The notes beneath the pieces were generated by a model. The model was not told the origin of the DNA. It did no database searches and saw nothing but the letters and a program-made list of their open reading frames with translations. A DNA stretch of 37,345 nt from positions 1-37,345 of the forward strand of contig JBLHKS010000051.1 in NCBI GenBank assembly GCA_047620505.1, read 5' to 3'. Below, piece by piece: positions 1,965-37,345 of the stretch. How positions within the stretch are numbered: position 1 is the first letter of the stretch; each line of letters opens with the position of its first letter. A program made the position numbers and the translations under genes. The stretch comes from Verrucomicrobiales bacterium. Its GTDB lineage: Bacteria; Verrucomicrobiota; Verrucomicrobiia; Verrucomicrobiales; DEV007.

Positions 1965-3316
1965 CCTAACTCCAATTCGCGGTTGCTGTCGCCGAACCGA
2001 TCGGTCTCGGCGCCCATTTTATGCGCCATCGATAGTAAGAGGTTGCTCATGTGAGCTTCGCTGTTAGCTGGGCGACTGCAAAGTCGATAGTGTTGGCCTG
2101 GATTATCAAGTTCGTAGCCATCGAAGTGGCCCTGATTGAAATCGACGTGGCTACCATGCTTGATTCCGCAAGCTGCCCCTCCGGCGAGCACCAGAGGCAG
2201 GTTGGCGTTGCCGTGGCTGTGTCCGTAGGCCATGCCGCTGCCGAACAAAGCCATCGTCGTGTCCAGCAGCTGCTGGCCGTCCAAATCCTTGGTCTCAGCG
2301 AGGCGGGTCAGGAAATAACCGAACTGCTCGACCGCAAAAGTATCGCTTTGAGCGAGCTTTTCCAAGTGCCCGGGATCGCCGTTGTGATGGCTTAGCTCGT
2401 GGCGCGATTGCGAAATGCCCAGCTCGGGAATCGGCAGGCCCTGACCTTCTATGCCGCTGCTGAAAGTGGCGACTCGAGTGGCGTCGGTCTGAAACGCCAG
2501 CACGATCAAATCGTACATCGCCCGAAAATATTCGCCCGCCTGAGTTTGGGCCACATCGCGGTTCGTGCGTTTGCGATCGGCATCGGCGATGGCAGGGCGG
2601 GGGACATCGAGCCAGGCATCGGCGCGTTCCGTGCGAATTTCGGTCTCCCTGACCGCGTTCAAATACTGCGCGAGCCGCCCCTTGTCCTCGACGCCCATCT
2701 TTTTCTCCAGCTTCCGCACTTCCTCGAGATTCGAATCGAGAACGCTTCCCTTGCGGCGCAGCGCACGCCTCTGGGCAGCCGTTCCGCTCTTGGGTTCCTC
2801 AAACAGGTGAGCAAAAATTTCGCTGGCTCGGTTCATTCCTGGAAGCCGGATTCCGTCCGCAGTCCAAGCCAGAGATTCGCCCTTGTTCGCGATCTCCAGG
2901 GAATGAAAACGCGTGTGCGGCGAGGTCACTTCAGCCATTTGCTGGTCGACCGAAATCGTGTTGCGAACCGAGGGGCCGATCTTTCCTCCGGTCAGCCAGA
3001 TTTTCTGGCAGTTGTGATGGTGGCCGAGTCCGCCCGGGTGGTGAAGGCCGCTGATCGGAGTGACGACGTCGCGATGTTTTTCCAAAGGCTTTAGCGAGCG
3101 CGAAAACGTGTAGTCCACGCCGGGAGAGGTGATCTGGTAGTCGAGCGTGTTGACTCCGTTAGGAATGTAGATGAAAACGCTGCGCTTGGGCTTGGGAGCC
3201 TCGGCGGCGCGCGCGGGATTCATGCAATCGAGCAGTGGCAAGGCGATGAAACTGCCGAGTCCGCGCAGCGCATGGCGGCGGTCGATCAGCCAGGATTGAG
3301 TCTGGATATTGCTCAT
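1961..3316 (-). CDS. DUF1501 family protein (sulfatase / alkaline-phosphatase-like fold) with a Tat-type signal.
   Basis: 451 aa. A twin-arginine-like N-terminus ([19 protein letters not shown]) is followed by FIYIPNGVN and a C-terminal [15 protein letters not shown]-type region characteristic of planctomycete DUF1501 proteins. Confidence 0.8.
2264..2275. repeat. Exact copy of the palindrome CAGCAGCTGCTG.
   Basis: Read directly from the sequence. It lies inside the DUF1501 gene (QQLL codons on the minus strand). Confidence 0.9.
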
Positions 3317-3330
3317 AGTATTATTAGTCT

Positions 3331-35382: not shown

Positions 35383-35646
35383 GCCGAGATTCGCGCTTTG
35401 TCAGGATGAATCCCACTCGTCCCTTAAGCAAAAAATGAATGTGCCGGGGTGTTGGCGCATTCTACTTTTCCTAAAACCTGAATTATGGCAATTTTATGGG
35501 ATATCGCGCCTGATCGTCAAAATACTCGCCGCTGGCCTCTTCGTTGGTCCGGCCACTGCGTGTTGAAATCTCGTTCGGCAGGCGGAGATTCAATATTTCC
35601 CTGGCGTCGATTGGGAATACCGGCTCGGGTTCCGAAAACTCCGCTT
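35383..35646. promoter_or_regulatory. Divergent intergenic region between ligA (minus strand) and the alpha/beta-hydrolase gene (plus strand). Promoters are presumed here.
   Basis: A 264-bp gap, relatively AT-rich (…TTTTCCTAAAACCTGAATTATGGCAATTTTATGGGATATCG…). No confident sigma motif was called. Confidence 0.3.
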
Positions 35647-37345
35647 ATGAAAACCCTGCTTGTTTCGATCCTCCTCGGCCTTTCGGCCATCGCGCTTCAT
35701 GCGCAAGACGCCCCGCCGCTCAAAGATCTGAACGGATTCTTTCCGTTCGAGGTTCCAGAAACTCTCGAGGCCTGGGAGGAGCGCGCGGCCGATCTTCGCC
35801 AACGCGTGCTCGTCGCCAATGGTCTCTGGCCGATGCCGGAGAAAACTCCGCTGAACCCGGTCATCCACGGCAAATTTGAGCGCCCGGGCTTTACGGTCGA
35901 GAAGGTCTACTTTGAGAGCTATCCCGGATTGTTCGTCACTGGCCTGCTTTTTCGACCTGAGAATCCGCCGGAGGGAAAACTGCCCGCTGTGTTGAGTCCG
36001 CACGGTCACGGCGGTCGACTTCAGGACCACGGCGTGGAGGGCGTCCTCAAGCAGATTGAGGGCGGTGGCGAGAAATTCAAGGAGTCAGGCCGGATGCCGA
36101 AAGTCGCTCGCTGCGCGACGTTGGCGCGGCTGGGTTGCGTTGTTTTTCTCTACGACATGTTTGGTTATGCCGATAGCAATCAACTTTCACGCGGGCTTGC
36201 TCACGGATTCAAGAAACAGCGGCCAGATTTCGAGGGGAAGGACAGCTGGGGGTTGTTCAGCGCGCAGGCGGAAATGCGGATGCAGTCGATCTTCGGTCTG
36301 CAAACCTGGAACTCGATCCGTGGTCTGGATTTTCTCGAAAGCCTGCCTGACGTAGACCCAAAACGCATCGCGGTGACCGGCGGAAGCGGCGGAGGAACGC
36401 AGACGATCATGTTGTGCGCGATCGACTCGCGGCCGATCGCGGGTTTCCCAAACGGGATGGTTTCCAGCGCGATGCAAGGCGGTTGCACCTGTGAAAACGC
36501 GAGTCTTCTGCGGATTGGAACTGGCAACGTGGAACTCGCCGCGCTGTTCGCACCTAAGCCGCAAGGGATGACCGCGGCTAACGACTGGACCAAAGAAATG
36601 CTCGTGCCCGGGAAAGGTTTTCCGGAATTGCAGAAGCTCTACGGGATGTACGGAAAAGTGGACAACGTGATCTGTGAAGACCTGCTTCATTTTGGGCATA
36701 ACTACAATTATGTGAGTCGCGCGGTCATGTATTCGTGGTTCAACAAGCATCTCGACCTCGGTCTTGAGGAGCCGATTGTTGAGGAGGATTTCAAGCTGCT
36801 GACGGCGGAAGAGCACGCTGTCTGGACTGTCGAGCATCCTGAGCCAGAAGGCGGCGATGAATTCGAGCGGAATCTAACGAATTGGATCGCGGATCAGGAC
36901 CAGCAGCTGCTGGACGCGATGACGGAAGGCGAGCGGCGCGAGACGGTTCGTGCGGCGTGGCGGACGATGATCGGTGCGAGCGATTTGAGCGGCGCAGTTG
37001 CGAGTTCGTTCTCTGCCGTGGGTTCGCCAGAAAAAACTACCCTTCAAACTGATCCGAAGTCCCCGTCTTTCTCGGTTTTTACGGCGAAACCAAAGGGGGA
37101 TTTCAAATTCACTGTTGTCTGGACGCACGAAAAGGGGAAGGACGGCTTATTCAAAGGGGACGGAACTCCAACTCCGGCCGTCCAGGGAATTCTCGACCGT
37201 GGAGGCCGAGTGATCACGGCGAATCTCCATCTTCAAGGGGACGAAATCAACGAAACGCCAGTCGTGGCCAACCCACGCGAATCTGCGAGCTACACGCACG
37301 CCTACAACGACTCGGTTTTCGCCGAACGAGTCCAGAATATTCTCG
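35647..37345 (+). CDS. Secreted alpha/beta-hydrolase (esterase/peptidase-like). The N-terminal ~566 aa are present and the gene runs off the window end.
   Basis: Manual translation from the ATG at 35647 gives MKTLLVSILLGLSAIALHAQDAPP (signal peptide)…RIAVTGGSGGGTQTIM (G-x-S-x-G nucleophile elbow)…HFGHNYNY. There is no stop codon before position 37345. Confidence 0.6.
   Translation, partial: MKTLLVSILLGLSAIALHAQDAPPLKDLNGFFPFEVPETLEAWEERAADLRQRVLVANGLWPMPEKTPLNPVIHGKFERPGFTVEKVYFESYPGLFVTGLLFRPENPPEGKLPAVLSPHGHGGRLQDHGVEGVLKQIEGGGEKFKESGRMPKVARCATLARLGCVVFLYDMFGYADSNQLSRGLAHGFKKQRPDFEGKDSWGLFSAQAEMRMQSIFGLQTWNSIRGLDFLESLPDVDPKRIAVTGGSGGGTQTIMLCAIDSRPIAGFPNGMVSSAMQGGCTCENASLLRIGTGNVELAALFAPKPQGMTAANDWTKEMLVPGKGFPELQKLYGMYGKVDNVICEDLLHFGHNYNYVSRAVMYSWFNKHLDLGLEEPIVEEDFKLLTAEEHAVWTVEHPEPEGGDEFERNLTNWIADQDQQLLDAMTEGERRETVRAAWRTMIGASDLSGAVASSFSAVGSPEKTTLQTDPKSPSFSVFTAKPKGDFKFTVVWTHEKGKDGLFKGDGTPTPAVQGILDRGGRVITANLHLQGDEINETPVVANPRESASYTHAYNDSVFAERVQNIL
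36902..36913. repeat. Exact copy of the palindrome CAGCAGCTGCTG.
   Basis: Lies inside the alpha/beta-hydrolase gene (DQQLLDA). Confidence 0.9.

Follow-up and report, generated by a model that had tools for sequence, protein, structure and literature searches.

Short palindromes of extreme abundance have essentially been described from a single phylum, the cyanobacteria, where the highly iterated palindrome (HIP) HIP1 (GCGATCGC) is widespread and where debate continues about its origin and its function. The positions of HIP1 sites are conserved and show periodicity, and HIP1 and alternate HIPs as described in Elhai 2015 (PMC4390886) and Xu et al. 2018 (PMC5861425) served as the comparison here. 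HIPs co-occur with orphan methylases recognising a site internal to the palindrome and saturate near 1 per kb, one-base variants of HIP1 are biased to the outermost positions, and the internal hexamer CGATCG is not itself enriched outside HIP1 (PMC4390886). Under the methyl-directed mismatch-repair ratchet proposed by Elhai, sites should saturate close to the distance over which the strand signal is effective (PMC4390886). In Synechococcus PCC 7002 and Synechocystis, transformation and recombination become more efficient when HIP1 is methylated (bioRxiv 10.1101/2024.09.10.611283). A second point of reference is provided by the uptake signal sequences (USS) of Pasteurellaceae and the DNA uptake sequences (DUS) of Neisseriaceae, for which molecular drive by biased uptake and recombination, reshaped proteomes and even spacing have been described (PMC2817400, PMC1939737). 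In this study, a 37,345-nt contig from a metagenome-assembled genome (MAG) labelled Verrucomicrobiales at NCBI, referred to as the window over its full length, was analysed for a 12-bp perfect palindrome, CAGCAGCTGCTG, with the core GCAGCTGC. The best explanation of the results is a HIP-type highly iterated palindrome that appears to have been written into essentially all genes of a narrow, uncultured Verrucomicrobiales clade.

An over-represented and evenly spaced palindrome

Thirteen exact copies of CAGCAGCTGCTG were present in the window, compared with none in 100 dinucleotide-preserving shuffles, which bears out the huge over-representation claimed in the original prediction. That prediction had also given the number of exact copies and twelve of their starts correctly, the last copy beginning at 36901 rather than 36902. 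Its five one-mismatch copies proved to be real and independent, four of them in the right place and the third at 14108 instead of 14111. A sixth candidate at 22765 was rejected as merely a shifted register of the copy at 22762. Together, 18 sites were obtained (Table 1), corresponding to 0.48 per kb over the whole 37-kb contig (~1 per 2 kb), and hits with at most one mismatch to CAGCAGCTGCTG numbered 19 against 0.03 expected. The core GCAGCTGC was common to 18 of 18 sites and AGCAGCTGCT to 17. Among the 36 CAGCTG hexamers of the window, 18 were part of GCAGCTGC, 17 of AGCAGCTGCT and 13 of the full 12-mer, while 5 extended to CCAGCAGCTGCTGG, giving a species-level extension of the core to (C)CAGCAGCTGCTG(G). 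The element is a perfect palindrome made of two 6-7 bp half-sites whose conservation falls off outward from the centre, and all five one-mismatch variants deviated solely at positions 1, 2 or 12. CAGCTG, GCWGC and AGCT showed no notable enrichment outside the full motif.

The flanks of the copies were unrelated beyond 12-14 bp, indicating that the copies are neither duplications nor pieces of a longer repeat. Local duplication, named in the original prediction as a finding that would overturn it, was accordingly rejected, the flanks sharing nothing beyond ~14 bp. A repetitive extragenic palindrome, a miniature inverted-repeat transposable element or another mobile short repeat was rejected as well, since all copies were intragenic, their similarity ended at 12-14 bp and no indels were seen at the aligned ligA and DUF1552 sites. 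The density of GCAGCTGC alone was discarded as a marker: high-GC genomes and phages reach similar densities by composition, with Markov-expected counts and heterogeneous flanks, and in such high-GC loci the 12-mer was essentially absent. The diagnostic unit is the 10-12-mer and not GCAGCTGC alone. A scan of viral contigs for CCAGCAGCTGCTGG returned single matches only, fitting chance or composition, and no enriched phage; Rfam and tRNA scans of the window gave no matches.

The gaps between the 18 sites ranged from 1049 to 3500 bp with a coefficient of variation (CV) of 0.35, and none of 100,000 uniform placements was as regular; the Greenwood test separately gave P<5e-5. GCAGCTGC had the lowest spacing CV among 979 words of the window (6-8 bp, 14-24 copies). 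The even spacing that had been proposed from 19 kb onward holds across the whole window once the one-mismatch copies are counted. Other motif-bearing loci were shorter and individually weak in this respect (P=0.08 for the locus L003 of a sister lineage), and the combined test gave P=6e-4. Two genes of ~5 kb hold three and two sites, and several genes of 1.2-1.5 kb hold none; the site distribution tracks distance, not genes. The longest motif-free gap, 3.5 kb, lies at 19.3-22.7 kb and may hold more recently acquired genes.

Sites written and kept at the DNA level

All 18 sites fell inside 14 open reading frames (ORFs) on both strands, 13 of them called genes and one a partial ORF at the window end. 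Nine sites were read as CAG-CAG-CTG-CTG (eight encoding QQLL and one RQLL), nine as nCA-GCA-GCT-GCT-G (AAA) and none as Ser-Ser-Cys, so that the intragenic placement in multiple frames and on both strands put forward in the original prediction applies to the complete set. When synonymous codons were shuffled so that neither the proteins nor the codon usage changed, the coding sequence was expected to hold 0.23 copies of the 12-mer compared with 12 observed, and 1.8 copies of GCAGCTGC compared with 17. When codon order was shuffled within genes, the expectation for the 12-mer was 0.00 against the same 12. All seven QQLL peptides in called genes were encoded by exactly this 12-mer, and 9 of 24 AAA tripeptides used GCA-GCT-GCT, GCA being the rarest Ala codon (~10%). 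The signal sits in the DNA and not in the protein, and the sites override the avoidance of rare codons and even conserved residues. Codon usage for QQLL and AAA, the other outcome that the original prediction had set against itself, did not account for the excess (12 versus 0.23).

Known Chi sites are asymmetric and skewed with replication direction, and the density of the motif falls in the range of Chi sites. A Chi-like signal that marks recombination hotspots or protects DNA ends, recognised by AddAB or RecBCD in either orientation, would suit the intragenic, frame-tolerant distribution, and Kamoku and Nielsen suggest that HIP1 may act partly in a Chi-like manner. A palindromic sequence is without polarity, the motif shows nothing that corresponds to the GC-skew switch in the window, and even spacing is not predicted by such a signal, which makes this explanation very improbable. 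A strictly Chi-like or KOPS-like (FtsK orienting polar sequence) polar role is unlikely, given that a palindrome reads the same in both orientations.

Orthologous positions revealed how the sites came about. Both ligA sites aligned without gaps to orthologues from ten Verrucomicrobiales relatives (nine per site), and the motif was absent from all of them. The orthologues read RLP(D/E/S)GAP and KKA(A/K/S)x(I/L) where the window reads RLPAAAP and KKAQQLL, respectively. Synteny of these LigA relatives with the window did not reach beyond ligA in any case, and the site comparison on that side covers ligA only. In the DUF1552 protein, the window has GQQLLDTTM, whereas almost all of 119 orthologues (82-90% identity, including Gimesia) have G(R/K)PLLDTTM and the rest close variants; none has QQLL at this site, the change in the window being RP to QQ. 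The syntenic PSD-DUF1552 operon of the locus L295, 81% identical in nucleotides, contains no GCAGCTGC in 15 kb, and at three orthologous 12-mers 13 of 36 bases differ from the window, above the 19% background divergence. No indels relative to orthologues were present at the aligned ligA and DUF1552 sites. At the site in the Dcm-family methyltransferase gene, a 3-nt gap adjoins the site in the L003 alignment.

The block shared with the sister lineage L003 gave the complementary picture. All four window sites recurred there at the same positions with 32 of 32 core bases identical, against a background nucleotide identity of 68-79%, and variation was confined to outer positions, with CAG...CCG and CGG...CTG as examples. 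Deamination as the source of the CAG/CGG variation was rejected: A is found at this position in three of four lineages, hence the G variants in L003 look derived, which is opposite to C-to-T decay. The comparison with related genomes suggested in the original prediction found the motif kept in L003 (4/4) and absent from the LigA and DUF1552 orthologues and from L295. Sites arise by substitution and not by insertion, and older sites are held in place between sister species. A directional substitution process creates the palindrome where proteins tolerate QQLL or AAA, sometimes barely; existing sites are kept, and density saturates at about one per 1-3.5 kb. The codon-aware null, the two frames and both strands, the derived state, the positions conserved in L003 and the unrelated loci described below all favour the earlier proposal of selection or drive on DNA over a protein motif.

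Conservation of position also bears on whether a protein binds these sites. The palindromic chromosomal sites parS and those of Noc, SlmA and MatP are limited to certain regions at tens of copies per genome, and are not known to occur every 2 kb inside genes. The window motif has the palindromic form of such sites, but at ~1 per 2 kb inside genes it is 10-100 times too dense, and a role as a segregation site fits poorly. More generally, the motif could be the binding site of an abundant dimeric chromosome-organising or repair-loading protein (nucleoid-associated or condensin-like), with selection for regular coverage. A perfect palindrome whose conservation decays outward is typical of sites bound by homodimers, and the very regular spacing and the positions conserved between sister species are compatible with this. 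Against it, no candidate binding protein was identified, and it is left unexplained why a young, narrow clade, unlike its relatives, would need such a system; this explanation is regarded as quite unlikely.

Carriers of the motif and an orphan methyltransferase

The PSCyt, PSD and DUF1552 content of the window and its LigA relatives (Akkermansiaceae, Oceaniferula, Luteolibacter) agree with the assignment to Verrucomicrobiales. The motif was found in at least four or five related metagenomic lineages whose outer bases differ slightly, in the manner of dialects, and it recurred in JGI, Logan and ENA assemblies that were made independently from separate samples. In L003/L004, which shares synteny with the window over the methylase, phosphodiesterase and HemN-like genes and their neighbours, there were 13 copies of GCAGCTGC in 17.7 kb with the consensus CRGCAGCTGCYG. 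Seven copies occurred in 10.9 kb of L088, four of them exact 12-mers, and three in 7.4 kb of L089-L092. L005, with three copies in 5.3 kb, two of them at one mismatch from the 12-mer, is probably also a motif-bearing locus. Unrelated loci of the sister lineages carried 0.4-0.7 sites per kb, and motif-bearing loci included genes unrelated to those of the window, such as PNPase, S15, MetE and a sulfatase. The motif was absent from about 35 LigA loci of other Verrucomicrobiales (closest LigA 59-69% identical) and from L093 (phosphodiesterase 55% identical, no CAGCTG in 21 kb), L295 and L298, the last being a different Verrucomicrobiales MAG from the same metagenome as the window. Independent assemblies with the motif and a same-sample MAG without it indicate that the phenomenon is lineage-wide but limited to a narrow clade, and is not an assembly or sample artefact. 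The motif-bearing clade is apparently young.

These data complete the case on ordinary or artefactual origins, namely codon usage, a favoured peptide, local duplication, a mobile element or faulty assembly. CAG and CTG are common codons, and CAGCTG and GCAGCTGC reach a similar density in some high-GC genomes and phages by composition. Such origins are nevertheless effectively excluded by the codon-aware nulls of 0-0.23 against 12 observed copies in two frames and on both strands, by the unrelated flanks and lack of indels at the ligA and DUF1552 sites, by the independent assemblies and the co-assembled motif-free MAG, and by the heterogeneous flanks and near absence of the 12-mer in high-GC loci.

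Two further observations concern word usage in these lineages. Several motif-free Verrucomicrobiales loci (the relatives L093, L011, L023, L039 and L010, and also L086) had no CAGCTG in 18-23 kb where ~5-7 were expected, which suggests PvuII-like restriction avoidance, the opposite of the enrichment in the window clade. Over the whole 17.7-kb L003 locus, the non-palindromic words AAATCCGCGC (8 copies) and ATCCGCGC (15 copies) were over-represented.

The known uptake sequences of H. influenzae, A. pleuropneumoniae and Neisseria are recognised by a receptor that is not symmetric. A sequence used for uptake or self-recognition of DNA in natural transformation, independent of methylation, would be bound preferentially by the competence machinery, and recombination of the bound fragments would spread new sites by molecular drive until every fragment-sized stretch had one. 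Such a sequence would account for several features of the motif: ~1 evenly spaced site per 2 kb, outer bases that vary by lineage like DUS dialects, confinement to a narrow clade, and intragenic sites in preferred frames that raise the frequency of the encoded peptides (QQLL, AAA), a property shared with USS and DUS (PMC2817400). Even spacing is also a noted property of USS according to Karlin et al., as cited in PMC1939737. On the other hand, the uptake sequences of H. influenzae, A. pleuropneumoniae and Neisseria are not palindromes (PMC2817400; explicit in PMC1939737), and no competence genes were found in the window. Genes without homologues in related genomes also lack uptake sequences (PMC2817400), unlike a TIR-nSTAND insertion specific to L003 that bears the motif at normal density. 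This explanation is considered unlikely, though it deserves to be kept in view. The insertion itself (L003:2217-7687, 5.5 kb) lies between the LysM and methyltransferase genes, is absent from the window at 15073-15083, encodes a defence-like pair of a TIR-domain protein and a 1350-aa nSTAND-WD40 NTPase, and holds 3 core sites.

The window also encodes a C5-cytosine DNA methyltransferase (Table 1), located between a LysM gene and a phosphodiesterase gene, with intact FPCQ, ENV and QSRKR catalytic motifs. Its orthologue in L003 is 78% identical and adjoins the same phosphodiesterase, a synteny seen in two motif-bearing lineages. Homologues at 51-58% identity number thousands in many phyla, and those examined at 55-58% identity lie in Dcm-DUF4928(-Vsr) modules, which are mobile type II restriction-modification modules; among 82 homologue loci, DUF4928 was present in 35, Vsr in 43 and both in 22. 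A metagenome scan with the methylase alignment recovered only 51-57% identical homologues, of the restriction-module type where a partner gene was found, and a scan with the neighbouring phosphodiesterase protein gave no matches. Neither DUF4928 nor Vsr was present in the motif-bearing loci; by this gene content the window enzyme is an orphan, and it derives from a restriction-modification family. HIP1 and the alternate HIPs present a parallel, with an orphan methylase whose recognition sequence lies within the palindrome (PMC4390886). NCBIfam and Pfam assigned it to the generic Dcm family only, and the partner protein DUF4928 is uncharacterised in the literature, with one incidental paper. 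The enzyme also matched the PADLOC model of the Druantia methylase DruM2 over its full length (E=3.7e-142) with no other Druantia gene nearby, and this model is probably a broad one that spans a whole family of type II C5-methylases.

The methyltransferase is the most likely candidate for the enzyme marking the motif, and the preferred mechanism, with a probability of roughly 40%, is a self-mark linked to methylation that would build up through biased repair, recombination or uptake. A perfect palindrome with conservation decaying from the centre points to a symmetric, presumably dimeric, activity that would read double-stranded DNA, and fitness or transmission would depend on a site in every few-kb stretch. 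The methyltransferase, presumably domesticated from a Dcm-DUF4928-Vsr restriction module, might methylate a site inside the core, e.g. CAGCTG or an overlapping GCWGC pair. A methyl-dependent process could then favour marked DNA, either strand-directed mismatch repair (Elhai's G-meC ratchet) or preferential recombination or uptake, the latter as reported for HIP1. The repair ratchet and molecular drive by biased uptake or recombination each yield the behaviour seen in the window, and the recent findings on methylated HIP1 bring the two together. New sites would be fixed until each 2-3 kb stretch has one, a course that would account for the saturation density as well as for the regular spacing.

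Several results weigh against the self-mark. The closest PDB relatives of the enzyme, M.HhaI and M.HaeIII, match the catalytic domain only and give no recognition sequence. In the pooled test of palindrome depletion (82 homologue loci, 697 kb), CAGCTG had an observed/expected ratio of 0.50 against 0.70 for controls, a suggestive value that was the second lowest but no outlier, CTCGAG, AGATCT and others also being low; GCWGC was not depleted around the 82 loci, and single homologue loci gave no informative signal. The association of methylase and motif is confounded by phylogeny, all carriers belonging to one clade. The phosphodiesterase gene has no methylase beside it in L088 and L089, and L094, a contig of only 3 kb, has a 64% identical methylase and no site. 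Type II methylase sites are typically shorter than the constrained 10-14 bp, which requires the assumption of one additional reader or more. The 37-kb window showed no Vsr, MutH-like or competence gene, and Elhai's repair ratchet is not known to have been demonstrated experimentally. A more specific version, in which an independent and evolutionarily recent HIP-like genome-wide self-mark arose outside cyanobacteria from a domesticated methyltransferase coupled to methyl-directed repair, recombination or uptake, is rather doubtful. If it is true, the narrow clade and its motif-free sisters would make the causal genes findable by comparison of gene gain and loss, and would open a tractable way into a question that has stood for 30 years, namely how HIPs arise and why.

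The sites are listed in Table 1 together with the methyltransferase and other genes of the window. More than 100 orthologues from Verrucomicrobiota, Kiritimatiellia and Planctomycetes share 82-90% identity with the DUF1552 protein (86% in Gimesia panareensis), reflecting either unusually strong conservation or recent horizontal spread. In the three-gene block, the 689-aa protein is flotillin/SPFH-like by eye, with an N-terminal transmembrane segment and a long E/A/K-rich coiled coil, and causes an AT skew of -0.30. The 1692-aa ATPase belongs to a family described by Pfam as DNA-repair ATPase and gave a weak LmuB-like PADLOC match. None of the PIN toxin, Uma2-family and NYN/LabA-like genes contains the motif.

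Table 1 Palindrome sites and other features in window coordinates (strand does not apply to the palindrome itself; gene strand is given where stated)
Feature	Coordinates	Gene or product	Frame or peptide	Comparison or evidence
Exact copy, CAGCAGCTGCTG	2264..2275	DUF1552/HXXSHH gene, - strand	QQLL	CGTCCGCTCCTC in L295
Exact copy	3517..3528	PSCyt/PSD gene, - strand	QQLL	CAGTTGCTGCTC at orthologous position in L295
Exact copy	5709..5720	PSCyt/PSD gene, near 5' end	AAA frame	CGGCAGGAGCCG at orthologous position in L295
One-mismatch copy, CAGCAGCTGCTC (position 12)	7113..7124	294-aa ORF	AAA frame	
Exact copy	8566..8577	1733-aa PSCyt/WD40 gene	QQLL frame	
Exact copy	10015..10026	1733-aa PSCyt/WD40 gene	QQLL frame	
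One-mismatch copy, GAGCAGCTGCTG (position 1)	12410..12421	1733-aa PSCyt/WD40 gene	AAA frame	
One-mismatch copy, CGGCAGCTGCTG (position 2)	14108..14119	thioredoxin-like gene	RQLL	CAGCAGCTGCTG in L003
One-mismatch copy, GAGCAGCTGCTG	15654..15665	methyltransferase gene	AAA frame	CAGCAGCTGCCG in L003 (Dcm site)
Exact copy	17924..17935	HemN-like radical-SAM gene	AAA frame	CAGCAGCTGCCG in L003
Exact copy	19262..19273	199-aa ORF	QQLL frame	CGGCAGCTGCTG in L003
Exact copy	22762..22773	328-aa ORF, 3' end	AAA frame	
Exact copy	25246..25257	1692-aa DUF3686/AAA gene, - strand, near 3' end	AAA frame	
Exact copy	27959..27970	DUF3686/AAA gene	QQLL frame	
Exact copy	30867..30878	689-aa flotillin-like gene	AAA frame	
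Exact copy	33766..33777	ligA	QQLL frame	unrelated codons and residues in nine LigA orthologues
One-mismatch copy, GAGCAGCTGCTG	34815..34826	ligA	AAA frame	RLPAAAP in the window
Exact copy	36901..36912	+ strand ORF running past window end	QQLL frame	
C5-cytosine DNA methyltransferase	15083..16189	368 aa, MFT5467472.1, + strand		PF00145 at 9.5e-46, TIGR00675
Operon	777-5757	PSCyt/PSD, DUF1552/HXXSHH, 395-aa ORF, - strand		
Three-gene block	25151-32998	234-aa YqiJ/NfeD-like membrane protein, 689-aa protein, 1692-aa DUF3686-DUF7902-AAA ATPase, - strand		
PIN-domain toxin gene	7315-8247	after 174-aa ORF		
Uma2-family gene	19771-20436	putative endonuclease		
NYN/LabA-like gene	22881-23684	nuclease		

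Comparison with known systems

In the literature, searches with the 12-mer and 8-mer brought up nothing but primers and eukaryotic E-box matches, Elhai 2015 makes no mention of CAGCTG, and no prior description of the motif, or of a HIP-like element in Verrucomicrobiota, was found in the searchable literature. The clade represents a young, sharply bounded natural experiment on the origin of HIPs, in which the process overrides protein conservation and a candidate domesticated methyltransferase lies on the same contig. What makes a HIP thereby becomes a matter for comparative genomics and methylome analysis, with a clear answer to be expected. Motifs of this kind distort codon and peptide statistics and are usable as lineage barcodes for binning. 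If the motif depends on methylation, it will probably be central to the transformation of these bacteria, which are uncultured or hard to manipulate.

In Campylobacter, CtsM and its RAATTY site provide methylation-dependent discrimination of self DNA during transformation. By analogy, an orphan methyltransferase and a short, frequent motif could mark self DNA in the window clade, but the window motif is much longer and rarer than RAATTY.

The resemblance to USS and DUS lies in a 9-12 bp motif that occurs about once per 1-2 kb with spacing more even than chance, in many genic copies in preferred frames that enrich the encoded peptides, and in lineage dialects at the outer positions; the accumulation is consistent with molecular drive. 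Unlike the perfect palindrome of the window, USS and DUS are asymmetric, and DUS often form inverted pairs in terminators, whereas 18 of 18 window sites are intragenic. Uptake bias and competence have been demonstrated for USS and DUS, while for the window motif they are hypothetical.

HIP1 is the closest relative in kind. HIP1 proper was rejected, as the sequence is not GCGATCGC and the organism belongs to Verrucomicrobiales, but the analogy with HIP1 drawn in the original prediction held for the following HIP-class features: excess, dispersion, independence of frame and strand, conservation of sites and deviants at the outer positions. Both elements are GC-rich perfect palindromes in excess beyond composition and codon usage, mostly intragenic in several frames, and conserved in position between related genomes. 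In both, one-base variants are found mainly at the outermost positions, and the internal hexamer shows no enrichment of its own beyond copies of the full motif. Neither element is randomly distributed, HIP1 being periodic and the window motif regularly spaced, and an orphan C5-cytosine methyltransferase is encoded in the genome, its link to the motif in the window being hypothetical. The two differ in the core (CAGCTG versus CGATCG), in the constrained length (10-14 bp versus 8 bp), in density, which is somewhat lower for the window motif (~0.5 per kb versus about 0.5-2.5 per kb), and in distribution, which is phylum-wide in cyanobacteria and restricted to a narrow, apparently young clade in Verrucomicrobiota. 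The window motif represents a second, convergent case of a hyper-abundant short palindrome, with a different core, a longer constrained length and a phylogenetic boundary that is sharp even within one sample.

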